A stretch of 64,000 nucleotides of DNA from Calditrichia bacterium (GCA_963765585.1 CAVXXB010000005.1:182402-246401), one strand, 5' to 3'. Counted from the stretch's first letter, positions 15,407 to 51,809 are shown. The notes: generated from the letters alone by a model not told the origin. Numbers and translations: made by a program.

Positions 15407-16579
15407 TTATTTTGCCACATTTGGTTCAAACTGGCGCATACATTGATATAGTGCGCGTGGCACGTGGAAACATCCTTTCCATTTTCCACCTTTTAACGGA
15501 AGCAAAATTTCGCCTCTGCGGTTCAGATAGCCATACCATTCGCCATATTTCTTATCCGGAAAATGTTGCCAGGTATACTCATGAACTTTATGATACCAAT
15601 TCCGGCAGTCTTTGCGCTCTGTCAATCGCCAGCTCATAGCCAGGGCAACAAGTGTCTCAAGATGAACCCACCACAATTTCTGATCCCACTCTAATTGTTG
15701 CGGCGGATTGTCTTTTATATCCATGAAATAATAGATCCCGCCATATTCTTCATCCCAGGCAAAATTGAGTGTGTTGATAATTATATCAACACATTGTTCA
15801 ATGCGCTCGTTATTGCCTTCTTGTTCGGCAATATCGATTATAAATGCCATGGCCTCAATACCATGTCCGGGATTGATCAGTCGTCCTTCAAAACAATCTA
15901 TAAATTTACCTTCGGGGGAAACATGCTCATGTAAAATTTGTTTTTCAGAATTAAGAAACAGATCAAACAATTCTGCGATGCTGTTGTCTATTGTATCACT
16001 CACCAAATCATCCTCCAGCATCCACGCCAGTTCTGTAGTCAGATTCGCCAGTATCATCGGCATTGCCAGTGATTTAACTGGTCGCGAATCGCTTACTGTT
16101 TTGTCATATTTTCCTTTGGGATTATCGCGGCGTCTGAGAATATTTTTAAATGTTTTCTCTGCAATGCGTCTCGCCTGATCATCATCAGCGGCCAATGCAT
16201 ATTGACTGAAAGCCATAGCTGCAAAGCAATCTGAGAATATATTATAGGGTTGTATTAACGGATTCCCATCTCTTGTGAGGGAAAAATACCAGTTACCATA
16301 CTGATCCCTACCATGCTGCTCAAGAAATTTGATGCCATGCTGCGCCAGGTCGAGCCATGATTTTTTCTTTTCCAAACGATTATACAACATCGAGAACAAC
16401 CATACCTGCCTCGCCTGCAACCAGACAAATTTATCAGTATCATACACCTTCCCGGTGCGATTGAGACAAGTAAAATATCCGCCGGACTTTTTATCGGGAG
16501 ATAATTTTTCCCAGAAAGGAATCACATTGTTTAATAATTCCTGGCGATATTTTGCAGCTAAATTTAGATTATTCCGCAT
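15407..16579 (-). CDS. N-acylglucosamine 2-epimerase (AGE) family protein (GlcNAc / cellobiose / mannose 2-epimerase-like)
   Basis: It has an (alpha/alpha)6 fold signature, 390 aa, with [33 protein letters not shown]...[15 protein letters not shown]. Confidence 0.8.
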
Positions 16580-24128: not shown

Positions 24129-25325
24129 ATGATCCAAAAGGCCGACTCACAATTTATAAAACGTTTGAATGAAATACAGATATTGCGTTTGATTCGCAAT
24201 CTGGGACCGGTATCACGAATTGAACTGGCAAAAAAAACCAGAATGTCAAAAGTGGCGGTTTTTGAAATTGTCAACCGGCTGATTGACCAGCGCTATGTCA
24301 TAGATGTCGGAAAAGGAAAATCGACCAACCGCGGCGGTAAACGTCCCTCATTAGTCAAACTCGATGCCAGTCACCATTTTGTTATCGGAATTGAACTGCG
24401 GCGTAATAAAACCTTTATTGCCATTGCTGATCTTGAAGCAAATATTCTCAGGATAAAAAGTTTTAACTTTGATGTATCAAGCGATCCTTGTGCTAACATC
24501 CGTAAAATGTTTGCCCGCATTGAAGTTCTGTTGCAGGCAGAAAATGCTGAAATGGATCAATTGATCAGTATCGGCATCGGTTTACCCGGAGTCGTGGATT
24601 ATGAGAAGGGGACTTTGAGGTTTGCCGACACGTTGCCGGGGTGGGATAAAATCGAAATTCGCAAAATGTTTGCAGATAAATTCAATGTTCCGGTGACTAT
24701 TGAAAATGATGTCAATACGATTGCGCTGGGTGAAAGTATTCTAGGCGCTGGCAAGGATGTACGTGATATGCTCTGTCTCTGGATCGGTTCTGGGATTGGG
24801 GCCGGATTGATTATGGATAGAAAATTGATCAGTGGATATGGGGGGGCTACCGGAGAAATTGGATATTTGGAAGTGGGCCGGCATCCGGGCAGGGAAAAGA
24901 CGTTTAGATATTTTAAAAATCAATTTAAATATTTTGGTGACTTGCTGTCAGAATCAAATTTAGTCGAAATTATTACGCAAGAAATAAGCAAAAAAAGTGG
25001 TATCAATCCGGAAGTAAAATCCCTTTCCGCTTTGCTAAAGGCAAGAAAATTTAAAGAACTGATAAAGCCCATCCTTGATGAGTATGCATATTTTTTAGGT
25101 GTATTGTGTCTGGATATAATAAAAATAATCGATCCGGGTCTGATTGTTCTAAGTGGCACAGTGGTTGAAAACTCGGATTTTCTTGTTTCGCGGATCAGGG
25201 ATTTTATTAAGGAAAATACCCGCCGGATCCCACTGAAAACCGGTGAAATTACCGTGGGAACGCTAAAAGAGGAAGCGGGTCTTAGTGGAGCCATTGCCCT
25301 GGCACTACAGGTTGTCTTCGATTAG
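24129..25325 (+). CDS. ROK-family transcriptional regulator (NagC/XylR-like)
   Basis: The N-terminal wHTH reads ILRLIRNLGPVSRIELAKKTRMSKVAVFEIVNRL. The sugar-kinase-like domain reads GIELRRN...GIGLPGVVD...NDVNTIALGE. It is divergent from the permease/hydantoinase/HGSNAT/GHL10 operon. Confidence 0.85.
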   Translation: MIQKADSQFIKRLNEIQILRLIRNLGPVSRIELAKKTRMSKVAVFEIVNRLIDQRYVIDVGKGKSTNRGGKRPSLVKLDASHHFVIGIELRRNKTFIAIADLEANILRIKSFNFDVSSDPCANIRKMFARIEVLLQAENAEMDQLISIGIGLPGVVDYEKGTLRFADTLPGWDKIEIRKMFADKFNVPVTIENDVNTIALGESILGAGKDVRDMLCLWIGSGIGAGLIMDRKLISGYGGATGEIGYLEVGRHPGREKTFRYFKNQFKYFGDLLSESNLVEIITQEISKKSGINPEVKSLSALLKARKFKELIKPILDEYAYFLGVLCLDIIKIIDPGLIVLSGTVVENSDFLVSRIRDFIKENTRRIPLKTGEITVGTLKEEAGLSGAIALALQVVFD

Positions 25326-27417: not shown

Positions 27418-28572
27418 ATGAAACAGCTTATGTCCAAAATAGTTTTAATGTCGATGTTATTATTGATATCGTGTATCTACAGTCAAAACCGCGAGATTAG
27501 AGGTGTATGGTTAACAAATGTTGACAGTCGGGTATTGGAGAGTCGGGAGAGAATAAGTGAGGCTATGCAATTTTTAGCAGATCATAATTTTAATCTGGTT
27601 TGCCCTGTGGTCTGGAATAAAGGGTTGACTCAATACCGCAGCCAGGTGATGGATAGTTTATTCGCTATACCCATCGATCCGCTGTTTGATGAGCGGGATC
27701 CTCTCGCTGAGCTCATTGCTGAAGCACATAAACGAAATATAGCGGTGATAGCCTGGTTTGAATTTGGTTTTGCATCTTCATATGAAGATGGCGGTGGACA
27801 TCTGCTGGACAGGTTTCCGGAGTGGGCAGCCAGGGATATCGAGGGAAAATTACTGGAGAAAAATGGTTTTGAATGGATGAATGCCTATCATCCGGATGTA
27901 CAGAAATTTATTCTGAGTTTGATCAATGAAGTGGCAGAGAATTATGCGGTTGATGGGGTACAAGGCGATGATCGATTACCGGCACAACCGGTTCAGGGTG
28001 GATACTCGAAATATACTGTAAATTTGTATCAATCTCAGCACGGTGGAACTCATCCGCCAAAAGAATATACAGATCCGGACTGGATGCGCTGGCGTGGAGA
28101 CATTTTAAACCGATTTGCCGGTACCATTTACACGACAGTAAAAAATGTAAATCCCGACATTCTGGTCACCTGGGCGCCAAGTATTTTTCCCTGGTCCTTT
28201 GAAGAGTATCTTCAGGATTGGCCGGCCTGGCTGAATGAAGGTCATGCCGATCTGGTATTTCCGCAAAATTATCGTTATTCATTGAACGAATATAAAGCCG
28301 TCTGTGATGAGCAAAACCGGATTGCACACAGCCTTGATAAGGCTAGGGATAAGGTCTATTCAGGTGTATTGATCAATGTTGGAGACTACGTGATCTCAGA
28401 GGAATTATTAGTTTCCAGCATAATGCATAATCGGTATCAGGGAATTCATGGCGAAGTTTTCTTTTTTTACGAAGGTTTACGCAAGAATGATAATGCCCTG
28501 GCCCGGCTGCTTCTGGAAAATGTATACCAGGAAAGGGTTGAATTACCATTTATACCCCGATTCAGGAGATAA
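27418..28572 (+). CDS. GHL10-family (PF02638) lipoprotein, no CTD
   Basis: The lipoprotein signal peptide reads ...LLISC. The GHL10 core reads REIRGVWLTNVDS...EAHKRNIAVIAWFEFGF...YAVDGVQGDDRLP. Confidence 0.8.
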   Translation: MKQLMSKIVLMSMLLLISCIYSQNREIRGVWLTNVDSRVLESRERISEAMQFLADHNFNLVCPVVWNKGLTQYRSQVMDSLFAIPIDPLFDERDPLAELIAEAHKRNIAVIAWFEFGFASSYEDGGGHLLDRFPEWAARDIEGKLLEKNGFEWMNAYHPDVQKFILSLINEVAENYAVDGVQGDDRLPAQPVQGGYSKYTVNLYQSQHGGTHPPKEYTDPDWMRWRGDILNRFAGTIYTTVKNVNPDILVTWAPSIFPWSFEEYLQDWPAWLNEGHADLVFPQNYRYSLNEYKAVCDEQNRIAHSLDKARDKVYSGVLINVGDYVISEELLVSSIMHNRYQGIHGEVFFFYEGLRKNDNALARLLLENVYQERVELPFIPRFRR

Positions 28573-28691: not shown

Positions 28692-31607
28692 TTGTATAAA
28701 TCTATCATTATCCTAATATTTTCAATAGTTTACTTCCATTTATCCTTAGGTGTAATCAATGCCCAGTCTACGGGCAAAATCGCCGGTTTTGTGAGCGATG
28801 ACCAGACCGGTGAACCACTGGTTGGAGTAAATGTGGTTGTCGTAGGTCAGTTTCTTGGTGCCGCGACTGATATTGACGGCCAGTATGTTATCCTGAATGT
28901 GCCGCCGGGCGAACATACCATTCAGTTTGAATATATTGGTTATCAAGGCAAAAATGTAACAGGTACACTGGTTAGGATTGACCGGACAACAGTGGTTGAT
29001 GCAGAGTTGTCAACCCAGACACTGGAACTGGATGATGTGGTGACCGTCACTGCGGAGCGACCGATTGTTGAGAATGATAAAACATTCTCATCGGTACATA
29101 TTGACGGTGCCGATGTAATGCCATTACCGGTGGAAGGTGTCAGAAATATTCTTGAATTATCCCCGGGAATCAATAAAAATGCAGATGGTACCATGAGTAT
29201 TCGTGGGGGCGGTCCGTATGAAATCAATTATAGTATTAATGGTATTACCAGTATGAATACCAACACCGGTGTGCCTGCATACGGCACTGGCAGCAAATCC
29301 GAAAACAGCTGGAAATATGACATCAATCCGCTGGCCATTTCTCAGATGGAAGTGATATCCGGTGGATTTAATGCCGAATACGGCAATGCCCAGTCCGGTG
29401 TTGTTAATGTGGTTACCAAAGATGGCGGACAGGATTTCAATGGTGCATTTTTCTTTGAATTCCGCCCGGCCGGGCAATATCACTGGGGAGACTACGTTTA
29501 CTCACAGAATCAGTTTGAATGGCAGAAGTGGGGAGATGTGGCCGCATGGTATCCATATTTTTTAAATGATTCTACGGGTATTGTCGATACCTCGGAAGCG
29601 AACCGCAATTATAATTTATGGAAGAAAAACCGAACGCCATCCGATGATAATATTTTTGGTGTGTATGATTACCGCAAACTAGCCTATACGCGATATTTGT
29701 TTAGTTTTGGTGGACCGCTTGGCCGTGATGGCCGGACATTAAATTTCTTCTTTAGTGGCGAGATAAAGAATACGCCTACGCGCCTACCTACCCGTGAAAA
29801 AATTCAGGAACTTACAAATTTATCTCTGGTACTTTCATTTAAACCCTCTGCCGAAAACAATTTTCGAATAACCGGATTGTATCAAAAGTACCTTTCCGGA
29901 ATGGGCTCCGGTTCAAATGATGTCCGTTGGGCAGGACTATGGGGGCAGGAAGGTGCCAAGCGAAAGTATACGCTTGTCTATGATTCGCCGCGTGAAGAAA
30001 CTGTTTTTGCCCAGAGTCTATCATATAAACATATTTTTTCTTCAATATCTTTTCTTGAGGCCACGCTTACACACCAAAGCGAAGTATTATTTGCCCTGCA
30101 AACACCGACACCGGCAACGGAAACCGATATTCAGGATCATCCGACCGATCTCGAAAATCGCCAGATTGAAAACAAAGGACCGTGGTTTGAAGACTACCGG
30201 CAATATTTTACCTGGTCCAGTTTGTATAATCAGGCGTCAGAGACAGAGTTCTACGAAGGGCGGGTCATCTTTACCGGACAATTATCAAAAACCAACCTGC
30301 TCAAGATTGGTGCCGAAGGTTATTTAATGGATCAAAATTATAATGCGTCATCTTCGTTATCCGTTTCGGCATTTATCTGGCGTACAGGATTTGCGACAAA
30401 TTATAAAGCCAAAACATGGTATGTCGGCTCATTTGTTCAGGATAAGCTTGAATTTGCCGGAATGGTGGGTAATTTTGGTTTACGTTTTGATGCCTATAAT
30501 TTTGGCGCGGATGCACCCGCTGATATATACAATGTCTTTTATCCGGCTGAAGGCAGTACAAGTTTTGGAATACCGGAATGGCAACCATCAGAAACATATA
30601 CCTCATTTTCACCACGTATTGGAATCTCATTTCCAATTGGTGACCGGACGGCATTCCGGTTGCAGTATGGACATTTCCGTTCCATGCCGATCATAAACCG
30701 GGCTCTGGATAATCAAACCAGTTTTGGTTGGGGAAGCTATGGTAATCCTAATCTCAAACCCAAACTAAGTATTAACTATGAAGTAGGGGTTCAGCAAAAT
30801 CTTTGGGGTACACATCAGCTGGATATTGTGACGTATTATAATGACCTGAAGGATCAGATATCCACCGTATATGTGCAGTCATCGACCGGTAAACGGCGCG
30901 GCGAGGGACTGGATTATACCTATATCAACTATAATAACCAGGGATACGGTACGTCCCGGGGAATTGAAGTCACTTTTGCCAATAAAACAGCTGATCGTCT
31001 GAAATACCGAATGAGTTATTCATACAGCCAAACCACTTTTGGCAATTATGGTACGTATGTTAATTTTCCGGAACTCAGTGAAACTCAGGAAGAACGATTT
31101 TCGTACTCTGCCAGTGATTTTCTGGCACCGGAAGATCGCAGTCACCGTTTCAATGCCACGTTTACTTATGCGATACCTGAGGGTGAAGGTCTAAGTATGA
31201 TGGGCTTGAGACCCTTCTCCAATTTCACAGCCAGCGTGATTTATCGTGTACAAAGCGGTGCTGCTTATTTCTTTTCACCCGAATATCAAACCAGTTTCCA
31301 GGTCGAGCCAAACCGACGTTACCCAATGGAATCGACAACCGATATACGTCTTGAAAAAGGATTCACAATTCTTGGCCTCAATTTTAAAGCCGGAATTCGG
31401 GTACTAAATTTATTTGATAATAAACATTTAACCCCGATTTATACCACTGAAGAACTGGAGCGCTGGGTATTACGCAGTGTCACATACGCCGATGCGGATT
31501 ATACCAGTACGGCAGATGCTAACCGCCCATTTAGATTATATAATTATTTTCAGACGTACCGGAATATTCCGCGCCAGGTATTCTTCTCATTAGGTTTTAC
31601 CTTTTAA
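28692..31607 (+). CDS. TonB-dependent outer-membrane receptor (CarboxypepD_reg-like N-domain, plug, beta-barrel); no adjacent SusD
   Basis: The N-domain reads GKIAGFVSDDQTGEPLVGVNVVVVG...GEHTIQFEYIGY. The plug reads ISGGFNAEYGNAQSGVVNVVTKDG. It ends with a C-terminal ...GFTF. Confidence 0.8.
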   Translation: MYKSIIILIFSIVYFHLSLGVINAQSTGKIAGFVSDDQTGEPLVGVNVVVVGQFLGAATDIDGQYVILNVPPGEHTIQFEYIGYQGKNVTGTLVRIDRTTVVDAELSTQTLELDDVVTVTAERPIVENDKTFSSVHIDGADVMPLPVEGVRNILELSPGINKNADGTMSIRGGGPYEINYSINGITSMNTNTGVPAYGTGSKSENSWKYDINPLAISQMEVISGGFNAEYGNAQSGVVNVVTKDGGQDFNGAFFFEFRPAGQYHWGDYVYSQNQFEWQKWGDVAAWYPYFLNDSTGIVDTSEANRNYNLWKKNRTPSDDNIFGVYDYRKLAYTRYLFSFGGPLGRDGRTLNFFFSGEIKNTPTRLPTREKIQELTNLSLVLSFKPSAENNFRITGLYQKYLSGMGSGSNDVRWAGLWGQEGAKRKYTLVYDSPREETVFAQSLSYKHIFSSISFLEATLTHQSEVLFALQTPTPATETDIQDHPTDLENRQIENKGPWFEDYRQYFTWSSLYNQASETEFYEGRVIFTGQLSKTNLLKIGAEGYLMDQNYNASSSLSVSAFIWRTGFATNYKAKTWYVGSFVQDKLEFAGMVGNFGLRFDAYNFGADAPADIYNVFYPAEGSTSFGIPEWQPSETYTSFSPRIGISFPIGDRTAFRLQYGHFRSMPIINRALDNQTSFGWGSYGNPNLKPKLSINYEVGVQQNLWGTHQLDIVTYYNDLKDQISTVYVQSSTGKRRGEGLDYTYINYNNQGYGTSRGIEVTFANKTADRLKYRMSYSYSQTTFGNYGTYVNFPELSETQEERFSYSASDFLAPEDRSHRFNATFTYAIPEGEGLSMMGLRPFSNFTASVIYRVQSGAAYFFSPEYQTSFQVEPNRRYPMESTTDIRLEKGFTILGLNFKAGIRVLNLFDNKHLTPIYTTEELERWVLRSVTYADADYTSTADANRPFRLYNYFQTYRNIPRQVFFSLGFTF

Positions 31608-31673
31608 ATGTGGCAATAATCTAACAGCGAAGGGCGTGAAGAAAATTAATTTCGGAATTTTGATTTTAGATTA

Positions 31674-33698
31674 ATGCTCAATTCGATGAAAAATGTGCTT
31701 GTTATGAATACTATTTTACAAAAAATTATTTTTATGCTGCTTATTACGACATTAGTATTTGGGCAGGAAAAGAATTATACCGTTTCGTTAACCCGTGGTA
31801 AATTGTGGCATTCCTTTTACCTTACACAGGATTGCGGCCCGATGGGCGACTGGGGTCGCCTTACCTATGGTTTAGATTGGCCCGGTTATGATCCGGACTC
31901 TTTGGCACAAAGCATCGGTGGTGCGAATAGTTATATAGTGTCAGGAGGATTCTATATTGCGGCCTTAAATGATACAGGAAAAGTATTGGGTTGGGCGGAT
32001 TTTTCAACCAAGAATATTGATACTAAGGTAGACTGGGCTGGCGCATCAAATAAATATCTTGTTTCACTGCACGAAAGGCGCTGGAAAAATGGTGAAAACT
32101 ACTGGCTTCAAAAAGACAATAGCGAAGCGGAAGAAATTATTGAAACTAAATGGGCCATAAACGGAGAGTGGTTTGAGCCCACCGACAATCCACCATTGCC
32201 CATCGCAGTAAAACGAACCGTGCGTCAATGGTCAGGATCTCAAGCAGATGAAGACTATATTATAATAGAGTATGTTATCGAAAATACGCAGCGTCGCAAC
32301 GACCTTTATGATGTGTACTTGCTGTTTACGCATGCCATTTCACCAAACTATCGTGGCTGGAATCTGCTGTTTCCTAACCTGAATCAGGGTGCCCGGAATA
32401 CGCAAAGTCGTTATTACCCCGATGAAAAAATGGCAGTGTCTTGGGCCGGTGACTATAAAGCCACACCGGGATTGGATGAAAGTTATGATTTTTTTAACTA
32501 TTTATCGTTTGATCCAATTCTGAATGAAAATATAAGCATTCCTGAGTTTATTGCGCCCGGAGCAGTTGGTATAAAAATCTTATATGCTCCTGCCGATAAA
32601 GATGGCATTGAAAATAAAATTAACGGATTCGCCTGGTCCGCCGGCGCACCGTCTCAGGATTCAGGCCCATTTCAGGAGGTACAAGGTATAAATGCCAAAT
32701 ATGAGGCCACTGCAAATCCGCTATTGCTTACTCGCGCCTTTGACGATGCAAATAATTCTGCGATGGGGGAGAGTCGGCTTTATACGAACTTTTCGCTGGG
32801 TCCGTTTGATATACCAGCCCGTGATTCAATCCGGCTAGTCATAGCTGAATTTGTCGGAGGTATGTCCTATACGCAAGCCAGAGATCCCAATACAACCAGA
32901 GAACTGGTAAAAATAAAAATAGATTCGGCCGTAAATTATCTCAGTCAACGCATACAATATAATTATGACAATGGTTTTCGTGTTCCAATGCCGCCCCATG
33001 CACCTGTATTTAGTATTAGCGCAGATACAGATCCCGGTGCACTGGGAAACGTAATCCGCTTTACAAATGAAATCGAATCTATACCTGATCCGCATCAGGG
33101 AATTGTCGATATTGCCGGATATAGAATCTATCGTTCACGCGAATTACCATTTGGGCGTTGGGAAAAGATTGCTGAATTTGCGGTCGGGGATGAAACATAT
33201 TTCAATTCGGTTGATGCAGTATATACCTTTACTGATGACAAAGTAGCGTTAGGCTATAGCTATTATTATTCTATTACCAGTTTTGATACCGGCCATGATA
33301 GTTGGGTAGTGAATGGTGATCCTGTGGTATCGCTTGAATCAAGTTTGTTCAGCAATCGCAAAGGTCCGTTCAGCACTACATTGCGTCCCACTGATGGCAG
33401 TGTTGACCAGGTAACGGTCGTACCTAATCCGTTTTATCGAAGTTCGGTTGCAACCGGTGTCACAGGTACAGAAAGAGATATCCTGTTTTTAAATTTACCG
33501 GCAAAGTGTACATTGCGGATTTTTACTGTTCGTGGTGATTTGGTAAAAACCATTCATCATAATAATCCATTATCGGGCAAAATTGTCTGGAATCAAATCA
33601 GTGATTTTGGTCAGTTTGTTAAGAGCGGAATGTATTTCTTTCATGTGGAAAGTGAAAATGGAGATGTAAACCGAGGAAAGTTTGCAATTATTAAGTAA
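31674..33698 (+). CDS. Hypothetical secreted protein with T9SS-type C-terminal domain
   Basis: It has a signal peptide and no recognisable catalytic domain. The C-terminus reads VTVVPNPFYRSS...CTLRIFTVRGDLVKTI...GMYFFHVESENGDVNRGKFAIIK. Confidence 0.5.
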   Translation: MLNSMKNVLVMNTILQKIIFMLLITTLVFGQEKNYTVSLTRGKLWHSFYLTQDCGPMGDWGRLTYGLDWPGYDPDSLAQSIGGANSYIVSGGFYIAALNDTGKVLGWADFSTKNIDTKVDWAGASNKYLVSLHERRWKNGENYWLQKDNSEAEEIIETKWAINGEWFEPTDNPPLPIAVKRTVRQWSGSQADEDYIIIEYVIENTQRRNDLYDVYLLFTHAISPNYRGWNLLFPNLNQGARNTQSRYYPDEKMAVSWAGDYKATPGLDESYDFFNYLSFDPILNENISIPEFIAPGAVGIKILYAPADKDGIENKINGFAWSAGAPSQDSGPFQEVQGINAKYEATANPLLLTRAFDDANNSAMGESRLYTNFSLGPFDIPARDSIRLVIAEFVGGMSYTQARDPNTTRELVKIKIDSAVNYLSQRIQYNYDNGFRVPMPPHAPVFSISADTDPGALGNVIRFTNEIESIPDPHQGIVDIAGYRIYRSRELPFGRWEKIAEFAVGDETYFNSVDAVYTFTDDKVALGYSYYYSITSFDTGHDSWVVNGDPVVSLESSLFSNRKGPFSTTLRPTDGSVDQVTVVPNPFYRSSVATGVTGTERDILFLNLPAKCTLRIFTVRGDLVKTIHHNNPLSGKIVWNQISDFGQFVKSGMYFFHVESENGDVNRGKFAIIK

Positions 33699-33728
33699 TC
33701 TTACTAATACCCGGATTGGTCAGAAAAA

Positions 33729-34734
33729 GTGAATTTAAAGCCAACTATGTGCTGCATAATTAAAAATAAATTCAAATTACTGAGTACTTTGTTCCTGACC
33801 GGAATGATACTACTCGGTTCACAAGCCCGGGGTCAGGAATTTCGTAAAGCCGGTACGGCTGGGTTTGTCTTTCTGGAGATTCCGGTTTCAGCTCGATCCC
33901 AGGCGATGGCCGAAACTGGCATCACTATGTCTGATATGTATTCGGAAGGCTTATATGTGAATCCAGACTTTGATCGCGCTCTCGCAGAATCCCCTATCGG
34001 TAAATGCCACCTATTCAAACTGGTATGTAGATACAAAACATATGGCCGCTGGTGTTACATATAAGATTCCCGTCATCGGCATGATTGGATTTTCGATTGT
34101 CAGTTTTGATTTTGGGACGATGAAAAAAACACGTGTCATTTTACAGGATCGCGGTGAAGAAGGAAAATATTTTGATCTGGGCAGTTTTTCAGCTCAGGCT
34201 TATGCCGTCGGACTGACCTATGCGCGTTCACTAACTGAAAGATTCTCCATGGGTATTTCGGTCAGGTATGTACGCGAGACTATCGACCAATTCTATGCCG
34301 ATAATTTTGTCTTTGATTTGGGTTTTATTTATCTAACGGGTTTTGAATCTCTAAGAATCGGTGCATTTTTGCAAAGTTTTGGTCTTGAAACCGCTTATGC
34401 AAATGAGAAATTTCGTATGCCGCAGATTCTCAAAATGGGTCTTTCTTACGATTTCCTTGGAACCATCGGCGATCGCGAGCGATTAACCTTGCTGGCGGAG
34501 GCGATTCATCCCAGTGATGCCAGTGAACGTGTACATCTGGGTATGGAGGGCGTGCTTCTGGGATCAGTTATATTAAGAGCCGGCTACAAATTTGCGTATG
34601 ACAATGAAGATCTTACTATTGGCCTCGGATTAAAGTTTGATTACCACATGCATTCTTTCCGGGCTGATTTTTCATACCAGCGTCACAACTATCTCGAAGA
34701 TACGTTTCGATATTCGCTGGTTGTAGATTTATAG
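33729..34734 (+). CDS. PorV-like / FadL-like outer-membrane beta-barrel protein; frame break near 33990
   Basis: Two overlapping ORFs are involved. The N-terminus reads AGTAGFVFLEIPVSARSQAMAETGI, which resembles the PorV N-terminal motif. The rest is a beta-barrel with alternating amphipathic strands. The family call is tentative. Confidence 0.45.
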
Positions 34735-34743
34735 GAATGTAGA

Positions 34744-35565
34744 ATGAAACAGACAGCTGTATTAATTATTATAATTTGTTCTCTTGCATTGCCAGTGTCT
34801 GGCCAGCAATTATTACCATTAGAGATCAAAATATCCGGCGGGTATCAACAGCCAACAGGTCTAAAGCAGGTTGAAAGCGCAAATGGATTTACCCTGGCTG
34901 GTCAATTGGCCTATACAGCAACAGAAAATCTGAATTTTCATTTTGATATCGGTTTTGACCAAACATCATTATCACAGCAGAATGTGCTGGATGAATGGAA
35001 TTGGGGTTATTGGGAAGAGACATATGTACCATTTCTGCCCGCTGTAGATGTCGAAGAAGTAAATAGGACATTACGCTATGATGATGGCGAGCGGTCGGCT
35101 GTTTTTGAACCGGAACAAAGTTTAAAAGAATTGCGTCTGGCGATTGGATCTGCCTATCAATTAAAATTATCCCAAAATATAACGGGCTTTATTCAATTTG
35201 ATTTTGGTGCATCCAGCTATAGTCGGGAACTGCGTATGACTGAACATTGGACACGACGATTTGAGTTAACAGAATCCAACCCAGATGGTGGTATTGATAC
35301 AACAAACTATAATTATAATTATGATTTACTGCATTTTGCACCGGCAAAGACCGGTTGGCGATTATTTATTGCGCCGGCGATTGGTGCATCTTATAATATC
35401 TCTGAGAGTATTGATTTGGTTGCAGAGACTAAATATCTATATTATTTGAAACGCAGTCAGGTGGAATGGCTGGAAGAATTGCTTTCTATACCGGCTGAGA
35501 GTGAACAATTTTTTCCGTTTGAGGCAAAATGGCTGATTGCGCTTGGTGTCAGATTTAACTATTAA
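34744..35565 (+). CDS. Outer-membrane beta-barrel protein (hypothetical)
   Basis: It has a signal peptide and the C-terminus ...GVRFNY. Confidence 0.45.
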   Translation: MKQTAVLIIIICSLALPVSGQQLLPLEIKISGGYQQPTGLKQVESANGFTLAGQLAYTATENLNFHFDIGFDQTSLSQQNVLDEWNWGYWEETYVPFLPAVDVEEVNRTLRYDDGERSAVFEPEQSLKELRLAIGSAYQLKLSQNITGFIQFDFGASSYSRELRMTEHWTRRFELTESNPDGGIDTTNYNYNYDLLHFAPAKTGWRLFIAPAIGASYNISESIDLVAETKYLYYLKRSQVEWLEELLSIPAESEQFFPFEAKWLIALGVRFNY

Positions 35566-35572
35566 AAATATT

Positions 35573-36217
35573 ATGAGACAATTTCAAAAAATACTTATTA
35601 TTATAATTATTATGGTCAGTGCCAGACTAACTTTTGGCCAGGAGGCCGGGCAGATTGGTGTGGCGGTTTACGGTAATTATTCACAGCCGGTAGCTGGTTT
35701 GGCAGACTGGTTTAAGCCAGCTACTAATATATCAGCAGCTGTTGGTCGTCAAAATGATCCGGATTGGTATTATGCCGGCGAACTGGAATACACGGAGTTT
35801 TCCAAAGAAAATCTGAGTGGATACCCGGCTGGCCGGCTCGCACTAAAATTGGAACATATTGGGATTCTATTCAACGCACGATACCGGTTTGTCAATCAGG
35901 GTGCCTTTAAGCCTTATCTTTCTTTTGCGGTAGGTCCTTTTTATTGGAAAGGAATCAGGGGGGCTATTGCTAAGGATTCAACCCGCAATATTCCTTTTAT
36001 CGATGAAAAATCCCTGGAAGAATGGAACTGGGGTTTCAAAACCGGTGTAGGATTTGAATTGCAGCTTTTACAGGGTTTGCATCTTGACTTCTTGATTTCA
36101 TTTCGTTTTATTGTCGGTGATTTGTGGCCAACTTTACAGCAGTATATTGAACTGGATGGCGTTTCGGGGTTCCAGACTATAAATTACGCAATGGGTGTAA
36201 AATATTATTTTGAGTGA
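35573..36217 (+). CDS. Outer-membrane beta-barrel protein (OMP_b-brl-like, hypothetical)
   Basis: The ATG is at 35573 (MRQFQKILIIIIIMVSARLTFGQE). The C-terminus is ...GVKYYFE. Confidence 0.45.
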   Translation: MRQFQKILIIIIIMVSARLTFGQEAGQIGVAVYGNYSQPVAGLADWFKPATNISAAVGRQNDPDWYYAGELEYTEFSKENLSGYPAGRLALKLEHIGILFNARYRFVNQGAFKPYLSFAVGPFYWKGIRGAIAKDSTRNIPFIDEKSLEEWNWGFKTGVGFELQLLQGLHLDFLISFRFIVGDLWPTLQQYIELDGVSGFQTINYAMGVKYYFE

Positions 36218-36379
36218 ATTATGGCTGGTTGCTACATTTACCAGGATAATTATTAACCACAGAGAACACTGAGATTTATGAATTTTAGAGCCACATTGAG
36301 AATGAGTAATTAGTAATTACATATAACTAACTTTTCCATCCCCGGCTCATTAAAATGTAATATATATACAGGAGGAAAT

Positions 36380-38342
36380 ATGTTTAAATTATTGTTACTG
36401 TTAGTAATAGTGATCACACTTTTAAATCCGGTTAGTGCGCAATATTCGCTGAACTGGAAAAATGATCAGGTTGTCACACCGGGCAATGATGTTACACGTA
36501 GTGCAGTATATAACCGGGCGACGGACCATGTTTTAGTCAGCTACCCGCAAATATGGTACTGATGTAATTATTCTCAACGCAGCTAGTGGTGATTCGGTTG
36601 GCAGGATGGATACAGCTAATTTAAGTGGTGGTACATATCCAATTAATATGATTGCCATAGCCGATGATGGTACCATATATGTCAGTAATTTGTCTGCACC
36701 ACAATTTACCACGGGTTCAACATTTAAGGTGTATCGATATGCAGATGAACAGGCAGCTCCGGAACTGGTTTTTGATGATGCCCTGGGTGATAATCGTTAT
36801 GGTGATGCACTGGCAGCAATTGGCAGCGGTAATAATAAATACATTTATTCATCAGGACAGGGCAACGAAAAAATGGTCGCGCTGCGCGATGATGGATCGT
36901 CCAGCCTGATTAAGGTCGCCGAAGTAACGTTGCCACAGGCGGGTAATGCCCGGCATGGTATTGGTCCGGTCACTCCGGGCGGAAATGTCTGGGTGAACGG
37001 AGCAGATACCGGCGCACCACCGCCCAGCCTGTTGACCAAGGATGGTGTTTTGATAAGTGTAATTCCGGATTCCCTGGCTTCAGCGGGAGGCACATCTTTT
37101 ATCGGAAATTTAAAACTTGGTACTTATAATATTCTAACACTTGTGAATGGTTTTTCAGGTACCATTCGGTCCGTGGAGTATTCTGAAGATGAAATCGGCA
37201 ATATAGCATATGGATATTTTGGTGAAAACTCAGATTCGACGCTGCTGTTTCATCCCACAGGACAGATAGGAAATGCAAATGCCAGCGGAACAATTAGTTA
37301 TGATTCCAAGCGTAATGCCTTAGTCACCGTGATTGGACAAAATAGCGTTAGTTCGGTTAGCTTTGAGGGTATGTTAAAAACCAGCACACCACGCGATAGT
37401 AATCTGGTAATTAATATCGATGGTGTAAATGATTTTTTCCCTACTGATCATGTTGGTACCAGTAATGGTCGCGACATGTTTCTGACCTGGTCAGCAGGTA
37501 AATTCTTCGTAGGTATTACCGGCCAGACCCTGGTTGATCCGTCGGAAACTAATTTTATGTATGTTGCATTTGATCTGGATCCTGCGGGGGGGCAAGGCTC
37601 ATCCACACCACCGGAAGTATCCGGCGGGGTAATTGCACTACCTTTTCTGGCTGATGTGGTCTTTGCTATCGAACCCTGGAAAGAACCGGAATTTATGTTA
37701 GGCACCATTTATAAGTGGAGCGGATCGGCATGGACTTCAACTCTGTTTGATGGGAACCTGGCCAGCGAAGGTGCCCTGGCTTTTGCAGATACAGGGAACG
37801 GCAAACTGGCTGAATTTTCGGCCATAATGAACGAACCCGGTATTGGTACCGATTATACCGATCTGGCGGTGATGGCCTATGTGGCTGAAAAAGAAGCCTC
37901 CGGTGCCGTGCTCTCTGCATTTCCAACAGATAATCCGACTCAGACCGGCGCTGCATTTACTCATTATTTTTATATGGAAAGTCTGGCCGACGGCTTGTTT
38001 CCGACCAATACGGATCATGTACAAATTAAATCTGATCCCTCGGCGATTGACCGGAATTTTACCGGAGTGATCGAGTCATTTGAATTAGAACAAAATTATC
38101 CCAATCCGTTTAATCCTGTTACAACCATCACATACCGGGTTCCGGTTGCATCTCAAATTGATTTGCAAGTTTATGATATTACGGGGCGGCTGGTTAAGAC
38201 ACTGGTAAACAGGCCACAAAAAGCAGCAGGTAAGCATAATGTTTCTTTCGATGCTTCAACGCTTAGCTCCGGGATCTATTTTTATCAGTTGCAGGCTGAT
38301 GGCAAGCAAATACAAACACGAAAAATGATTTTGATTAAATAA
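36380..38342 (+). CDS. Secreted beta-propeller-like protein with T9SS CTD; frame break near 36540
   Basis: ORFs 36380-36562 (signal peptide) and 36606-38342 join in-frame-shifted as ...NRATDHVLVS/ATRKYGTDVIILNAASGD.... The CTD reads FELEQNYPNPFNPVTTITYRVP.... An AGGAGG RBS lies at 36371. Confidence 0.5.
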
Positions 38343-38542: not shown

Positions 38543-40396
38543 ATGAATAAATTGTTGTCTTTAATCATACTGATTTTCACAATTGCAACACTTACTTCAG
38601 CCCAGCAAAAGGAACTGCGCGGCACCTGGGTGGCCTGGGCCGGAAGCAATTATCCGCAAAAAGAACAGATCGCCGATTGGATGGACCAGCTGGCGGCGGG
38701 TAATATCAATGTGGTTTACGTTGATGTATGGCGATTTGGCTATCCATATTTTCGCAGTGAAGTATTCCACGATCTGACCGGCAAATGGACCGATCCGGGA
38801 TTAGTCGAAGGCCGTGATATCCTGCAGGAAATGATTGCCGAAGGGCACCGGGTGGGTATTGAAGTGGATGCATGGTTCGAAGCCGGGTTTGCAGCTTCTC
38901 AACTGGAAAACCGCGATTTATACTTTAGTAAACCACAGTGGTTTGCTAAAAAACAAAATGGCTCAGTCGATTTCTTTTCAAATGGGGGTCTGCGCTATAA
39001 CTGGCTAAGTCACTGTAATGAAGAAGCACAACAATTCCTGATTGATCTGGCACAGGAAGTGGCGGAAAAGTATGATGTGGATGGGATAGAGTTTGACCGC
39101 ATACGTTATCCCGAATTGGATTGCGGTTATGATTCTGCAACAGTTGAATTATATAAATCCGAGCATGATGGCCAGAGTCCGCCAACCAGTGTTGCAAATG
39201 CCGGTTGGATTCGCTGGCGCGCTGATAAATTGAATGACTTTGTCAACAGGCTTGCAGACTCGATTAAATCTGTCAATCCCGGTCTGACAGTGAGTAATGC
39301 CCCATTGTGGTACGGTTATGAACAATTTTGTCAGGACTGGCCACCCTGGATAAATAATAATTATTTAGATTTGGCAAGTACACAAATGTATTTTGCCAGC
39401 AATTCCCAATTTGAGTACCGCCTGGATATCGAATTACAAAAAGTAACAAATGATGGTGATTTATATCCAGGAATATCAACGGTGGCCAATGGTGAGGTGA
39501 CACCAGAAGCAGAGTTGATAGCCATGATAGAGACGACGCGGTCACGCGGATTACAGGGCAATGTGATCTGGTATCATTTAAACCTGTTAAATTATCTTGA
39601 TGGATTAAAAAATTCGGTATATGCAGAATCGGTGGAATTACCATATCGTGAAGCCGGATGGCGTAAACCGGCGATTATCATCAATGAATCAGATAGTGTT
39701 GTAAAAAAATCTACCGGTTGGGTCGATTATAATGGTATCCCTGGTTATGATAATGGTTGTCTTTATGCCAGCAACGTGGATAGCCAATGGATTGAGTATT
39801 ACGCTTCAATCCCGGATGAGGGGTGGTATGAAGTTTATGCGTATATCATACAATTTTTTAATGCTACCGGATCGGCGACCTATTACATTGCCGACTTGAA
39901 AGGCACACAACGAGTGCAGATTGATCAGACCAAACCAGCGAATGCGCGCTGGACAAAACTGGGCGATGTGTACCTGAACAAGGGGGATTCCCAGCGAATT
40001 GTATGGTTAAACAATGAAAATGTTGGCGATAAGTTTGTTTTTGCTGATGCAATTATGATTTTGAATACCAATCGTGTTCTTGGTCCGACCAGTCATGTAA
40101 ATAATCCGGATAATTATCTTGAGAATATTCCCGATGAATATATTTTAGGTCAAAATTATCCCAATCCGTTCAACAATAGAACAGTTATACCATTTACTTT
40201 AAATGATTCACAGTGGGTGGAAATCCAACTATACAATGTCAACGGTGAACAAGTCCAGACCCTTTATAGCGGCCAGACCAGACCGGGAGAAAATAAAATC
40301 CGGGTTGATCTAAGCCATATGGCCAGCGGGATTTATCTATATGGCATTCACAGTCGGAATTATAACCAATACCGCAAATTGATCTTATTAAAATAA
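38543..40396 (+). CDS. GHL10-family (PF02638) protein with T9SS C-terminal sorting domain
   Basis: The GHL10 core reads ELRGTWVAWAGS...EGHRVGIEVDAWFEAGF...YDVDGIEFDRIRYP. The CTD reads YILGQNYPNPFNNRTVIPF.... Confidence 0.8.
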   Translation: MNKLLSLIILIFTIATLTSAQQKELRGTWVAWAGSNYPQKEQIADWMDQLAAGNINVVYVDVWRFGYPYFRSEVFHDLTGKWTDPGLVEGRDILQEMIAEGHRVGIEVDAWFEAGFAASQLENRDLYFSKPQWFAKKQNGSVDFFSNGGLRYNWLSHCNEEAQQFLIDLAQEVAEKYDVDGIEFDRIRYPELDCGYDSATVELYKSEHDGQSPPTSVANAGWIRWRADKLNDFVNRLADSIKSVNPGLTVSNAPLWYGYEQFCQDWPPWINNNYLDLASTQMYFASNSQFEYRLDIELQKVTNDGDLYPGISTVANGEVTPEAELIAMIETTRSRGLQGNVIWYHLNLLNYLDGLKNSVYAESVELPYREAGWRKPAIIINESDSVVKKSTGWVDYNGIPGYDNGCLYASNVDSQWIEYYASIPDEGWYEVYAYIIQFFNATGSATYYIADLKGTQRVQIDQTKPANARWTKLGDVYLNKGDSQRIVWLNNENVGDKFVFADAIMILNTNRVLGPTSHVNNPDNYLENIPDEYILGQNYPNPFNNRTVIPFTLNDSQWVEIQLYNVNGEQVQTLYSGQTRPGENKIRVDLSHMASGIYLYGIHSRNYNQYRKLILLK

Positions 40397-40412: not shown

Positions 40413-40500
40413 TAAATCAGTGTAAAACCGCACCTATCCGCGTAATCCGTGTGCAATGGGCGAGTAATGAATGGCCCAGCGGGTCTCGCTGAATTAAAGA
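40413..40500 (+). repeat. Dispersed intergenic repeat element, copy C (9-mer array plus core); the core supplies the start codon of the next gene
   Basis: It reads taaatcagtgtaaaaccgcacctatccgcgtaatccgtgtgcaatgggcgagtaATGAATGGCCCagcgggtctcgctga. Compare copy B at 43684. Confidence 0.65.
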
Positions 40501-41822
40501 CAATATTATCAAAACATAGTGCCGTTGAAAAAAAGGATAAAGATATTAATAAATTCCTTTTAAGATTTCTGTTATTATTCATTTCATTTTTGAATATTAC
40601 CTGTCAAAACAATACAGATTTAATAAGTGAATCGGATCTTTTTTCTGAGCGCACCAGGTTAAGCAAACGATCCGAATTCAAAAGCCGGCTGATACATCAC
40701 ACGATTGAGTTCGCGCTGTCAAAGAACCTATCCGATAGCACCGAGTCGGATTGGCAGGGGGCATTTTGGGCCATGGGACTTGCCCGTTATCGTTCGCAAA
40801 AAACCGATGTGGCTATGAATCAGGCGCTGGCTGACTTTGATAATCGATCGGATAGTTTTAAAAGGTCGTTGCTGGAAATATTATATACTTTATATGAAGA
40901 TGAATACATCACAGATATCATCAATATTTCTATGCGTACAACAAGTAATAAATTATTTGCTATGTGTGCCATTTATTTAAAGGGATATGACAATGATTTG
41001 ATTGCAAGGATGGTCGCAAAATTTCCAGATTGGCAAAGCGATCCTATCCTTTATTCCTTATACCAGGATTTATCTGGCAATGTATATGAGCGGCCGCCCT
41101 TAGCAGATTTATTGCGACACGATTTTTCGACCAAATCGCCGGTGGTCTTTAGCATTCAGCGACCGGATCGCCGATATCCAGGACTTTTGTTAATCAGGTT
41201 GGCAAATGGTCAGTTTCTCAAGACTGAGAATGATAGTATGTTTTACATCCGGCAATTGGCACTGTCCAGTTCAAATCTTCCTGGCTATCTGGCCAATGGT
41301 AATACACCACAGGGTGTTTTTTCGATGCAGGGAGAATTAATTTCTCAAAATGTTTTTATTGGACCAACACCGACACTGCAGACGGTAATGCCATTCGAAG
41401 TATCTGTGTCCGAATTTTTTCACTCAACCGATACTAAAGGCCAGGAATGGGAAATCAGCAGATATAGCGATTTGCTCCCGGATTCCTGGAAGGAGTATAC
41501 ACCCATCTACGAGGCGTATTATGCCGGTCAGGCCGGGAGAACAGAAATAATTGCGCATGGCAGCACTATCGATCCCGAATTTTATAGGAACGAACCGTTT
41601 TATCCCCTAACACCATCTTTAGGCTGCATGACAGCATATGAAAGATGGAACGATCAAACTGGTGTATGTGAACAAAGTAGACAACTGCAATTGGTTAATC
41701 GACTAAAGAAATCTGGGGATTTGAACGGGTTCTTAATCGTGGTTGAGATAAATGATATAAAAAAGCCGGTCAGCATGGCGGATCTTAGTATCATCGCCGC
41801 AAACAAAAAAATGCAAAAATAA
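40467..41822 (+). CDS. Hypothetical (lipo)protein
   Basis: The ATG at 40467 (MNGPAGLAELK...) lies inside the repeat core. A hydrophobic stretch FLLRFLLLFISFLNITC follows. There is no recognisable domain and the start is uncertain. Confidence 0.4.
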   Translation: MNGPAGLAELKTILSKHSAVEKKDKDINKFLLRFLLLFISFLNITCQNNTDLISESDLFSERTRLSKRSEFKSRLIHHTIEFALSKNLSDSTESDWQGAFWAMGLARYRSQKTDVAMNQALADFDNRSDSFKRSLLEILYTLYEDEYITDIINISMRTTSNKLFAMCAIYLKGYDNDLIARMVAKFPDWQSDPILYSLYQDLSGNVYERPPLADLLRHDFSTKSPVVFSIQRPDRRYPGLLLIRLANGQFLKTENDSMFYIRQLALSSSNLPGYLANGNTPQGVFSMQGELISQNVFIGPTPTLQTVMPFEVSVSEFFHSTDTKGQEWEISRYSDLLPDSWKEYTPIYEAYYAGQAGRTEIIAHGSTIDPEFYRNEPFYPLTPSLGCMTAYERWNDQTGVCEQSRQLQLVNRLKKSGDLNGFLIVVEINDIKKPVSMADLSIIAANKKMQK

Positions 41823-41991
41823 ATGAGATCATGTTCCCAGTATACCACCTCGGACACGGTGACGTTTAAACAATTAAATGTCATTGCGAGAAGCGAAGCG
41901 ACGAAGCAATCTATGGCAAAAGTTCTGAATGGCATATACTTATAACCGATTGAAGAATGTTATAAACATTTATAATAAAGGTGAAATTGAG

Positions 41992-43647
41992 ATGCAAAAG
42001 AAGATATGTAGTATATTGTTTGTTCTGATTTTTATTTTTTCCGGATATGCTGAAGATATTATCTGGACTGAAGACACGACGGTTTCATTGCCTGATAGTA
42101 TTAAACTTTATAAAGGAACCCGCACATCGCCCAAGTTGCAGGCTTTTTATCTGGATGTAAATTTGAAAAATGCAGAAATCGCTGTACGTCCATATTTTGG
42201 AGTTCAGACTGCCACCCTGCCAGTATTCACCTCGGCAGCCGGCGCATATGTTGCAATAAATGCCGGTTTTTTTGGTGGTAGTACATCGTATTCCACAATT
42301 ATTAGTCCCGGCGAATTAAAAGCCGCAAACGTGCAATCCTTAGCACGCAATAACCTCACATTTCCTGTCATCCGAAGCATGTTTAGTATAGATACTGACG
42401 GCACAATGGCAGTAGACTGGATGTACCATTTTGATAATACTTTGGAAGGTGTATATTCATTTTCGCAACCATTGTCATATATCAACAACGACCCGGTGCC
42501 GAAAAGTACACCAAAAAAGGAAGACGGAACACCTTTGACAGATTTGCTGGTGGCTGTCGGTGGGGCACCAGTGCTGATAAAAAATGGCGTTATCAATATT
42601 ACTTACGATGAAGAAATTATGTGGGGATCGGGTGTCGGTTTGGACAATAGGGATCCAAGAACCGCTGTTGGTTATACACTGGATAATCACGTGATATTAT
42701 TTGTCGCGGATGGCCGGCAGACGATTAGTGAGGGCGTCAGCTTGCCGGAACTGGCACAAATATTATCGGACCTGGGGTGTAACGAAGCAATCAACCTGGA
42801 TGGCGGTGGTTCCACGCAGATGGCTTTGCCCGGACAATATATAAATTCGCCATCGGAACAGCGGCCGGTGCCAACCATTTTTGCAGTAGTACATAAAGAT
42901 TCTCTGGGCGTACCGGATGAGCCCCAGATTGAAAAGATTATTGATAGCGGAGATTCTGAATGCGAGTTAATTGGGCCAGGATGGTTTCCTACAGCGAATT
43001 CGGGTTTTTGGGGCGAAACACCTTCCATGCTGCATTCGAAGGGAGATGGATCGAGTTATGCACAATATCAGGTGAATGTGGCCGCCGATGCTATTTATGA
43101 TGTTTATGCCTGGTGGGTCGCTTCAACAAACAGATGCACGGATACACCTTTTATTATTCACCATAAGCATGGCATCGATACAGTTTATAAAGATCAGGCT
43201 ACGAATGGCTCCAGCTGGGTACCAATTGGTACGTATACATTTCGTGGAGATTCGAGTGAAAAAATTATTGTTTCTGATAAGGCGACCAATGGCACATATG
43301 TGGTCGTGGATGCGATCCGTCTGGTCACTTATGATACTACCGTTACAGCATTAACGAATTCAGAGGTACGGCATGTACCTGAAAATTTTGTTTTGCATCA
43401 AAATTATCCCAATCCGTTTAATCCTGTCACCACGATTCAATATCAGCTGGCGAAACCAGGCCATGTGGATATAAGTATCTATAATTTACTTGGCGAAAAA
43501 ATGACTACTTTAGTTAATACAATTCAGGCTGAGGGATATTATTCTACTGAATGGCATGCGGACGGGTTTGGAAGTGGTGTATATTTTTATCGCATGTTGA
43601 CCGCGGACGGTCAAATGCAAACAAGAAAACTAATCCTGCTAAAATAA
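41992..43647 (+). CDS. Phosphodiester glycosidase family protein (PF09992/DUF2233, NAGPA 'uncovering enzyme'-like) with T9SS CTD
   Basis: The motifs are YVAINAGFFGG and AVGYTLDNHVILFVADGRQ...NLDGGGSTQMAL. The CTD reads VLHQNYPNPFNPVTTIQYQL.... The ATG is at 41992. Confidence 0.75.
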   Translation: MQKKICSILFVLIFIFSGYAEDIIWTEDTTVSLPDSIKLYKGTRTSPKLQAFYLDVNLKNAEIAVRPYFGVQTATLPVFTSAAGAYVAINAGFFGGSTSYSTIISPGELKAANVQSLARNNLTFPVIRSMFSIDTDGTMAVDWMYHFDNTLEGVYSFSQPLSYINNDPVPKSTPKKEDGTPLTDLLVAVGGAPVLIKNGVINITYDEEIMWGSGVGLDNRDPRTAVGYTLDNHVILFVADGRQTISEGVSLPELAQILSDLGCNEAINLDGGGSTQMALPGQYINSPSEQRPVPTIFAVVHKDSLGVPDEPQIEKIIDSGDSECELIGPGWFPTANSGFWGETPSMLHSKGDGSSYAQYQVNVAADAIYDVYAWWVASTNRCTDTPFIIHHKHGIDTVYKDQATNGSSWVPIGTYTFRGDSSEKIIVSDKATNGTYVVVDAIRLVTYDTTVTALTNSEVRHVPENFVLHQNYPNPFNPVTTIQYQLAKPGHVDISIYNLLGEKMTTLVNTIQAEGYYSTEWHADGFGSGVYFYRMLTADGQMQTRKLILLK

Positions 43648-51800: not shown

Positions 51801-51809
51801 AATACACCT

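Follow-up and report, generated by a model that had tools for sequence, protein, structure and literature searches.

A 64,000-nt stretch of DNA from a Calditrichia bacterium (GCA_963765585.1, CAVXXB010000005.1:182402-246401), in the following called the window, encodes between positions 28,692 and 38,342 a TonB-dependent receptor (TBDR), a 674-aa protein designated U674, a beta-barrel of the PorV/PorQ family, two putative small outer-membrane proteins (OMPs) designated B273 and B226, and a protein of the DUF4623 family. In our judgement the chances are about even that a conserved outer-membrane cassette here forms the core of a SusD-independent locus for TonB-dependent uptake of glycans, with U674 as a capture protein that would be tethered by the barrel. 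The first-pass annotation of this DNA, made from the sequence alone, had listed the genes of the block without recognising that TBDR, U674 and PorV/PorQ-like barrel form a conserved unit, which is found in hundreds of species and in thousands of paralogue clusters. Our literature searches returned nothing that describes this cassette, the U674 family or DUF4623.

Conservation of the gene order

Relatives of U674 were detected in 337 species in a scan comprising one genome per species, and the best 80 loci were examined, the neighbours being counted by tblastn with the proteins of the window. The TBDR gene was located directly upstream of U674 in 72 of 73 loci and the PorV/PorQ-like gene directly downstream in 73 of 74. 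With the TBDR directly in front and the barrel directly behind, U674 therefore occupies the place of a SusD gene. The genes of the two small barrels lie downstream as well (B273 in 61/66 loci, B226 in 54/63). This order of the core genes recurs in the 80 loci throughout several phyla, the record titles naming Calditrichota, KSB1/Zhuqueibacterota, Neomarinimicrobiota, Kryptonia, Ignavibacteria, Melioribacteraceae and Delongbacteria, and the arrangement goes far beyond what chance would produce. The median intergenic gaps between the five core genes amount to -1, 10, 3 and 11 nt, the value of -1 belonging to TBDR and U674, and since these gaps are near zero the five genes fit one transcription unit. 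A promoter and terminator scan was uninformative, with counts near chance expectation. In the 80 orthologous loci, no second triad of TBDR, U674 and barrel was detected at a distance of up to 10 kb.

Furthermore, the U674 profile was searched against 1.84 billion cluster representatives, which resulted in 10,846 matches at E<=1e-3, 4,110 at E<=1e-10 and 397 at E<=1e-30. Among the top-listed matches, many are proteins of 600-850 aa with an LTRGKLW motif, the core sandwich motifs, an FN3 domain and the special C-terminal domain (CTD) described below. Named members of this superfamily come from Gemmatimonadota, KSB1 and Latescibacteria, and the locus tags indicate several copies per genome (ONB07_01910/01965; JXJ21_11675/12975/12980). 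Seven distant paralogues were checked with hidden Markov models (HMMs) built from the TBDR and barrel sets of the 80 loci. The TBDR family was present directly upstream in all seven (E 1e-74 to 1e-127) and the barrel family directly downstream in all six cases in which the contig continues, while the outer neighbours were wholly different, including GWxTD, DUF6785, a LacI regulator, PhyH and an FGE-sulfatase. Because this three-way linkage persists while the other genes change, TBDR, U674-like protein and PorV/PorQ-like barrel appear to act as one outer-membrane unit. The paralogous triads of the loci L084, L087 and L091 are followed by genes for GWxTD-domain/TPR proteins, with DUF6785 in L084 and L087, and thus by an accessory set that differs from the one in the window and is likewise uncharacterised.

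Among 63 further metagenome loci, the gene immediately upstream belonged to the TBDR family in 39 of 56 and the gene immediately downstream to the barrel family in 45 of 54. Most of the exceptions are extra U674-like genes of one marine lineage, which either form tandems or lie 3-6 kb downstream from a complete triad. The marine loci L095-L114 show the order TBDR, U674-like gene, PorV/PorQ-like gene and, after about 3.3 kb of other sequence, a further U674-like gene; tandem pairs occur in L095 and L100. One TBDR and one barrel may serve several U674-like proteins in this lineage.

TBDR of the cassette

The TBDR exhibits two Pfam domains above cutoff (Plug PF07715, 32.7 bits; PF00593, 46.3 bits) and also CarbopepD_reg_2. 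On the SusC/RagA model TIGR04056 it scores 69.6 bits compared to a cutoff of 368.25, and only profile positions 2-207, which comprise the N-terminal extension and the plug, align, so that by HMM threshold the protein is outside the SusC/RagA family. U674, encoded downstream of it, shows no match to SusD in Pfam, and the SusD Pfam families matched none of the open reading frames (ORFs) of at least 150 aa across the 64 kb. As the SusC model fails and the required SusD is missing, the cassette is not a member of the SusCD family. Together with the CTD-bearing proteins encoded in the window, this bears out the earlier description of a SusD-less block that resembles a polysaccharide utilization locus (PUL) and contains type IX secretion system (T9SS) cargo.

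Another SusD-less pair is located at 50889-54146 on the minus strand, where a DUF4249 protein comes after a 778-aa TBDR of the CarbopepD_reg type. On the HMM of the cassette's TBDR family, this receptor reaches 105.7 bits.

U674 and its C-terminal domain

None of 127 full-length U674 homologues (about 670 aa) contains a Pfam domain, in accordance with the first-pass annotation, which had seen no recognisable domain in the 674-aa protein. This applies to profile matches only, as the predicted structure shows a supersandwich and an FN3 domain. According to the AlphaFold2 (AF2) model (predicted local distance difference test (pLDDT) 80.8, predicted template modelling score (pTM) 0.78), a Sec signal peptide without lipobox cysteine is followed by a segment comprising residues ~31-88, a beta-supersandwich (~89-400), a long helix, the FN3 domain (~441-570) and a divergent T9SS-type CTD (~600-674) modelled as a beta-sandwich. 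In its fold the ectodomain is similar to supersandwich domains that have no catalytic role in glycoside hydrolases and phosphorylases, and neither Pfam nor the comparison of the AF2 model revealed a catalytic domain in U674.

The segment of residues 31-88 (window ~31764-31937) has a mean pairwise identity of 46%, on a par with the folded domains. It contains the invariant residues W60, D68, W69 and P70, and the LTRGKLW motif common to the distant paralogues. Despite this conservation its pLDDT is below 50, and the segment may require a partner in order to fold.

The CTD reported for the 674-aa protein by the first-pass annotation is present, but it misses the thresholds for a type-A domain (TIGR04183 16.4 bits, cutoff 23; no match to PF18962). 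Instead, 21 of 24 family members match the C-terminus of PorZ (best E 6.4e-10) and 23 of 24 that of PorU. On TIGR04183, the window's remaining CTD proteins reach 41-52 bits, and none of them matched PorZ; the values for the DUF4623 protein (51.8), GHL10 (41.2) and NAGPA (43.1) are all above cutoff and of type A. Within U674, the CTD is the best conserved part, with a mean pairwise identity of 58% compared to 49% for FN3 and 42% for the sandwich. The DUF4623 cargo exhibits the opposite relation, its CTD (45%) being less conserved than its body (56%). By these profile matches the CTD of U674 is to be classified as atypical. PorZ and PorU keep their CTDs uncleaved, and these domains anchor the two proteins on PorQ and PorV, respectively (PMC10947112; PMC10202324), and cognate PorV-like barrels have been proposed to shield such CTDs from cleavage (reviewed in PMC10202324).

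Barrels of the cassette

The barrel gene downstream of U674 was interrupted by a frameshift, which is treated below. Its repaired product reached 171.9 bits on the PorV/PorQ family model NF033709 (profile positions 2-325 of 326, cutoff 90), and the uninterrupted ORF 33970-34734 alone reached 136.5 bits. Thereby the PorV-like barrel postulated in the first-pass annotation is confirmed as a member of the PorV/PorQ family which adjoins a CTD-bearing protein. The scores on the equivalog models are 98.5 bits for PorQ (NF033711, cutoff 220) and 69.9 bits for PorV (NF033710, cutoff 250), and because both cutoffs are missed we consider the barrel a paralogue and not a core component of the T9SS. By synteny (73/74 loci) it is predicted to be a dedicated partner of U674.

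The window proteins B273 and B226 showed no significant HMM match (B226: PF13568, 15 bits). Their orthologues match PF13505 (OMP_b-brl) in 10 of 26 cases for B273 (best E 1.2e-5) and in 11 of 27 for B226 (best E 4.4e-11). Read from the sequence, both possess a signal peptide and end in ...RFNY and ...KYYFE, respectively, with a C-terminal aromatic residue in B273. B273 and B226 are distantly related paralogues (hhalign probability 95.6%, E 1e-8), and B226-like genes are located upstream of the TBDR in the paralogue loci L086 and L091. No match to the PorP/SprF model TIGR03519 was found for any of the three barrels in NCBIfam at E<=0.1; neither B273 nor B226 was assigned to OmpA or OmpW in Pfam or NCBIfam, and their profile searches of the PDB yielded nothing or noise. 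The HMM comparison suggested for the three barrels thus supports the PorV/PorQ family for the first of them and PorP/SprF for none. B273 and B226, which had been likened to the PorP/SprF or PorV shuttle proteins, give neither signal and are probably generic OMP_b-brl-type barrels.

Enzymes and inner-membrane proteins

Twelve co-directional genes are located on the plus strand between 24.1 and 43.6 kb. The divergent minus-strand operon at 14.4-23.9 kb, which was overlooked in the first-pass annotation, is part of the same system and also encodes a DUF4434 protein. The amino-sugar context consists of three GHL10 enzymes, a NAGPA protein, a NagX-like protein, a member of the GlcNAc 2-epimerase family and a ROK regulator; NanE occurs in locus L060. 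The three GHL10 genes score 192.8, 180.5 and 176.8 bits on PF02638 and are above cutoff. The N-terminus of the one at 27418-28572 (LLISC) resembles a lipobox, going by a reading of the sequence only. A GHL10 gene was present in 45 of the 49 loci longer than 15 kb. Together, the enzymes point to an N-acetylhexosamine-containing polymer as a candidate substrate.

The DUF4623 protein matches the PF15416 family (PDB 4ftd) and consists of a six-bladed beta-propeller, a second beta domain and a canonical type-A CTD, in agreement with the beta-propeller-like CTD protein of the first-pass annotation. Its gene was found in 26 of 51 loci, none of them of the Ignavibacteria/Melioribacteraceae type (L038 onward), and is a clade-specific accessory.

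The 487-aa membrane protein encoded on the minus strand is 63% identical to its counterpart in Melioribacteraceae and was found in 26 of 49 loci (median identity 63%), and the neighbouring hydantoinase-like protein in 21 of 49 (median 61%). Between the Calditrichota/KSB1-like and the Melioribacteraceae loci both proteins are about 62% identical, compared to 37-41% for the outer-membrane parts. The 487-aa protein received no family assignment, and its PDB search gave only noise; it is a likely candidate for the permease that serves the system in the inner membrane. The hydantoinase-like protein is a candidate ATP-dependent processing enzyme for the imported product.

Interrupted genes

The reading frames of the barrel and the DUF4623 gene, which the first-pass annotation took as they stand, are each shifted by a single extra A, at ~33967 (CCAG[A]CTTTG) and at ~36539 (GTC[A]GCTACC). 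Both insertions lie outside homopolymers. The orthologues read through without interruption (...YVNPALIAL... in the barrel, ~315-325 aa; ...DHVLVATRKYG... in DUF4623, ~650-660 aa), and repair leads to products of 328 and 653 aa, respectively. The 578-aa protein without recognisable domain described earlier is actually a DUF4623 family fold of about 653 aa, for which the start codon given there (ATG, 36380) is correct.

At least two unrelated genes of the window are split likewise. The acrB gene at 57503-60602 (+) is distributed over two ORFs covering profile positions 1-604 and 654-1020 of the Pfam model, and a PF09818 (ABC_ATPase) gene at 60932-62459 (-) over two overlapping ORFs covering positions 2-126 and 128-279. 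For this reason we read the splits as assembly indels; they suggest that the assembly carries about one indel per 10-15 kb, and the 1-nt insertions in the barrel and DUF4623 genes are probably assembly errors. An independent Logan contig with 99.9% identity ends 78 nt before the first insertion site. Exact look-ups of B273 and of the truncated 578-aa DUF4623 product (P0121) in independent assemblies gave no match. Alternatively, the frameshifts might be real and the cassette non-functional in the source genome, as there are two such insertions within 2.6 kb and the public record of a 289-kb contig carries the 578-aa product. We regard this decay as quite unlikely, since the AcrB and PF09818 genes are affected in the same way, no other damage was seen, and the DUF4623 gene is intact in a relative with ~84% nucleotide identity.

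Proposed function and alternative explanations

For the SusD-independent uptake locus, which we hold to be as probable as not, the following course can be envisaged. Export of U674 would proceed first through Sec and then through the T9SS, and the PorZ/PorU-like CTD of U674 would remain uncleaved and dock on the PorV/PorQ-family barrel in the way PorZ does on PorQ and PorU on PorV. This tether would keep the ectodomain of supersandwich and FN3 at the cell surface beside the TBDR, where U674 could capture the substrate and hand it over as a functional analogue of SusD or of a surface glycan-binding protein; B273 and B226 would be accessory subunits. We infer contacts of U674 with both barrel and TBDR, and a role in binding and not in catalysis. 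The secreted CTD enzymes, namely three GHL10 proteins, one NAGPA and one DUF4623 propeller, would cut an N-acetylhexosamine-containing polymer outside the cell, and the products would cross the TBDR and then the conserved inner-membrane protein. Processing could be accomplished by the hydantoinase-like, NagX-like, N-acylglucosamine 2-epimerase (AGE) and FAD-oxidoreductase proteins under control of the ROK/NagC-like regulator.

Several observations weigh against this proposal. The barrel gene is frameshifted in the window itself. Given the weak type-A similarity in 22 of 24 U674 members, the CTD may be cleaved and U674 attached to anionic lipopolysaccharide (A-LPS), and the conservation of the CTD could have another cause. 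Moreover, the other CTD proteins of the window weakly match the PorU tail, too (E 1.5e-3 to 3.4e-5), so that only the PorZ matches are distinctive. The extra U674-like genes of the marine lineage, which have no barrel or TBDR of their own, mean that the pairing of U674, barrel and TBDR is not strictly 1:1. Regarding the substrate, the characterised GHL10 activities found in the literature, namely peptidoglycan cleavage by Cwp19 and starch degradation by DogH, do not fix a single one.

The barrel might instead be a private secretion shuttle, i.e. an outer-membrane T9SS adaptor specific for U674, comparable to the SprF/PorP-like proteins that serve SprB and other type-B cargo, with U674 a secreted or surface enzyme or adhesin without direct partnership to the TBDR and the TBDR merely an importer of the same operon. 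The adjacency of U674 and barrel (73/74) would be expected equally in this case, cognate PorV-like barrels are established for specific substrates (PMC10202324; PMC9143113), and U674 possesses many invariant polar and aromatic residues. We nevertheless consider the shuttle rather unlikely, because the adjacency of TBDR and U674 is equally strict (72/73, median gap -1 nt) and persists in distant paralogues whose downstream genes are wholly different, and because no catalytic domain was recognised in U674. It is even less probable that small or hydrophobic products diffuse through the barrel as through a FadL-type channel, with the small OMPs as porins and U674 as an ordinary type-A cargo that is cleaved and anchored to lipopolysaccharide. 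PorV and PorQ proteins are indeed homologues of FadL, faint precomputed Pfam matches to Toluene_X or UPF0164 exist on paralogous barrels, and the weak type-A likeness of the 22 U674 members would suit such a cargo. However, the match to NF033709 is full-length and well above cutoff, and the channel leaves both the conserved PorZ-like CTD and the invariant adjacency of the barrel unexplained.

Finally, U674 and the barrel could be the PorZ and PorQ orthologues of this lineage, i.e. parts of the T9SS attachment complex that happen to be encoded in a glycan locus. It is true that the C-terminal HMM matches of U674 are PorZ and PorU and that the barrel scores higher on PorQ (98.5 bits) than on the other equivalog. 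But the equivalog cutoffs are widely missed (PorZ 21.7 vs 260, PorQ 98.5 vs 220), PorZ proteins are beta-propellers whereas U674 consists of supersandwich and FN3, and there are several paralogous copies per genome, each examined copy with its own TBDR. We therefore rejected U674 and barrel as PorZ and PorQ proper, since the scores fall well short of the cutoffs and the fold differs, and a core T9SS function appears extremely improbable.

Comparison with known systems

The cassette is related to two known kinds of system, TBDR uptake loci and pairs of a PorV-like barrel with its cargo. It resembles SusC/SusD (RagA/RagB) in that a TBDR with a carboxypeptidase-regulatory-like domain is followed by the gene for a non-catalytic partner that is surface-exposed (in the case of U674, by prediction), and it resembles the SusC/SusD PULs in the secreted or surface glycosidases, the inner-membrane transporter and the sugar-responsive regulator around this pair. 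Unlike SusD, a lipoprotein with TPR fold, U674 is a protein of supersandwich, FN3 and CTD that would be exported by Sec and T9SS. Furthermore, the PorV/PorQ-family barrel and the two small OMPs are extra fixed components compared to SusC/SusD, and the lineages concerned are not typical Bacteroidia (Ignavibacteria, Calditrichota, KSB1, Marinimicrobia, Gemmatimonadota, Latescibacteria). TBDR and DUF4249 pairs likewise combine a SusD-less TBDR of the CarbopepD_reg type with a small accessory protein, but the partner belongs to a different family, and barrel and CTD are absent.

As in PorQ-PorZ and PorV-PorU of P. gingivalis, a FadL-like barrel is paired with a surface protein carrying an atypical CTD. 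In contrast to these pairs, for which alone retention of the CTD is known, the proteins of the cassette are not equivalogs, and their genes sit beside that of a TBDR in an operon for nutrient uptake and have multiple paralogues. The SprF-SprB pair also involves a cargo-specific barrel (PorP/SprF) encoded beside its T9SS substrate, the adjacent barrel being used for secretion and anchoring of the type-B CTD cargo (PMC9143113), whereas the barrel studied here is of the PorV/PorQ family and neither TIGR03519 nor a type-B CTD signal was found. In BamG-BamH of the BAM complex of Bacteroidota, a FadL-like barrel holds a surface protein via extracellular loops (PMC12578637); that pair, however, belongs to the OMP biogenesis machinery and contains neither CTD nor TBDR.

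Uptake of glycans in Bacteroidota is defined by SusC/SusD pairs, which also serve as the marker for finding PULs. To our knowledge, the equivalent of this system in SusD-less relatives is largely unannotated. A T9SS-dependent alternative to SusCD across phyla of the Fibrobacterota-Chlorobiota-Bacteroidota (FCB) type is plausible and fits the context data. We propose only tentatively, and with less confidence than the uptake locus itself, that the cassette is a general and independently evolved counterpart of SusCD in the six lineages named above, with a capture subunit that is delivered by the T9SS and, in place of a lipid anchor, kept at the transporter by a dedicated FadL-like barrel via its retained CTD, and with thousands of paralogues whose diversified ectodomains would serve different nutrients. 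If the proposed function of the cassette holds, the combination of TBDR, U674-like protein and PorV/PorQ-like barrel would be a searchable marker for nutrient-uptake loci in abundant uncultured lineages of sediments, marine waters and hot springs. It would also represent a second, non-secretory use of PorV/PorQ-type barrels and would link the function of the T9SS directly to TonB-dependent import. Genomic context is now given to a large family without Pfam entry, comprising ~4,100 cluster representatives at E<=1e-10.

Other features of the window

Each gene that had been listed in the first-pass annotation of the block was found on the plus strand at or near the position given there (Table 1).

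Table 1. Genes of the putative uptake locus and of the divergent operon (occurrence in loci as defined in the text)
Feature	Position	Strand	Basis or occurrence
N-acylglucosamine 2-epimerase family enzyme	15407-16579	-	HMM
Third GHL10-Golvesin_C-CTD enzyme	16896-18788	-	Pfam
DUF5009 membrane protein, weak similarity to NagX glucosamine N-acetyltransferase	18785-20188	-	HMM
Hydantoinase/oxoprolinase-family protein (ASKHA ATPase)	20221-22383	-	21/49 loci; also L060
Polytopic inner-membrane protein, 487 aa	22443-23906	-	26/49 loci
ROK-family regulator, winged-helix N-terminus, NagC/Mlc-like	24129-25325	+	20/49 loci
FAD-dependent oxidoreductase PF12831	25551-27392	+	Pfam; 15/49 loci
GHL10 enzyme without CTD	27418-28572	+	PF02638, 192.8 bits
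TBDR, 971 aa, N-terminal carboxypeptidase-regulatory-like domain	28692-31607	+	Pfam
U674, 674 aa	31674-33698	+	No Pfam domain; weak C-terminal T9SS-type matches only
PorV/PorQ-family barrel, 328 aa once repaired	33747-34734	+	NF033709
B273, putative small OMP beta-barrel	34744-35565	+	Orthologues match PF13505; 61/66 loci
B226, second putative small OMP beta-barrel	35570-36217	+	Orthologues match PF13505; 54/63 loci
DUF4623 propeller, second beta domain and type-A CTD, ~653 aa once repaired	36380-38342	+	
GHL10-Golvesin_C-type-A CTD, TIM-barrel glycosidase-like, secreted	38543-40396	+	Pfam
Putative lipoprotein, 457 aa or shorter	40449-41822	+	Orthologues in L012, L065
NAGPA (phosphodiester glycosidase)-Golvesin_C-type-A CTD	41929-43647	+	HMM

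The 457-aa lipoprotein showed no match in Pfam, NCBIfam or the PDB. Its residues ~375-400 (...IIAHGSTIDPEFY...TPSLGCMTAY...) resemble the HG[ST]...SxGC signature of YkuD-type L,D-transpeptidases, a resemblance unsupported by HMM or PDB. At 46288-49563, the minus strand encodes a protein of 1091 aa which combines six DUF4397 repeats with a type-A CTD. On the same strand, a small CTD-bearing ORF (849-1349) follows a Peptidase_C39_2-like ORF (1387-1932), and the two may be a split gene. U674 included, at least eight CTD-bearing proteins are encoded in the window.

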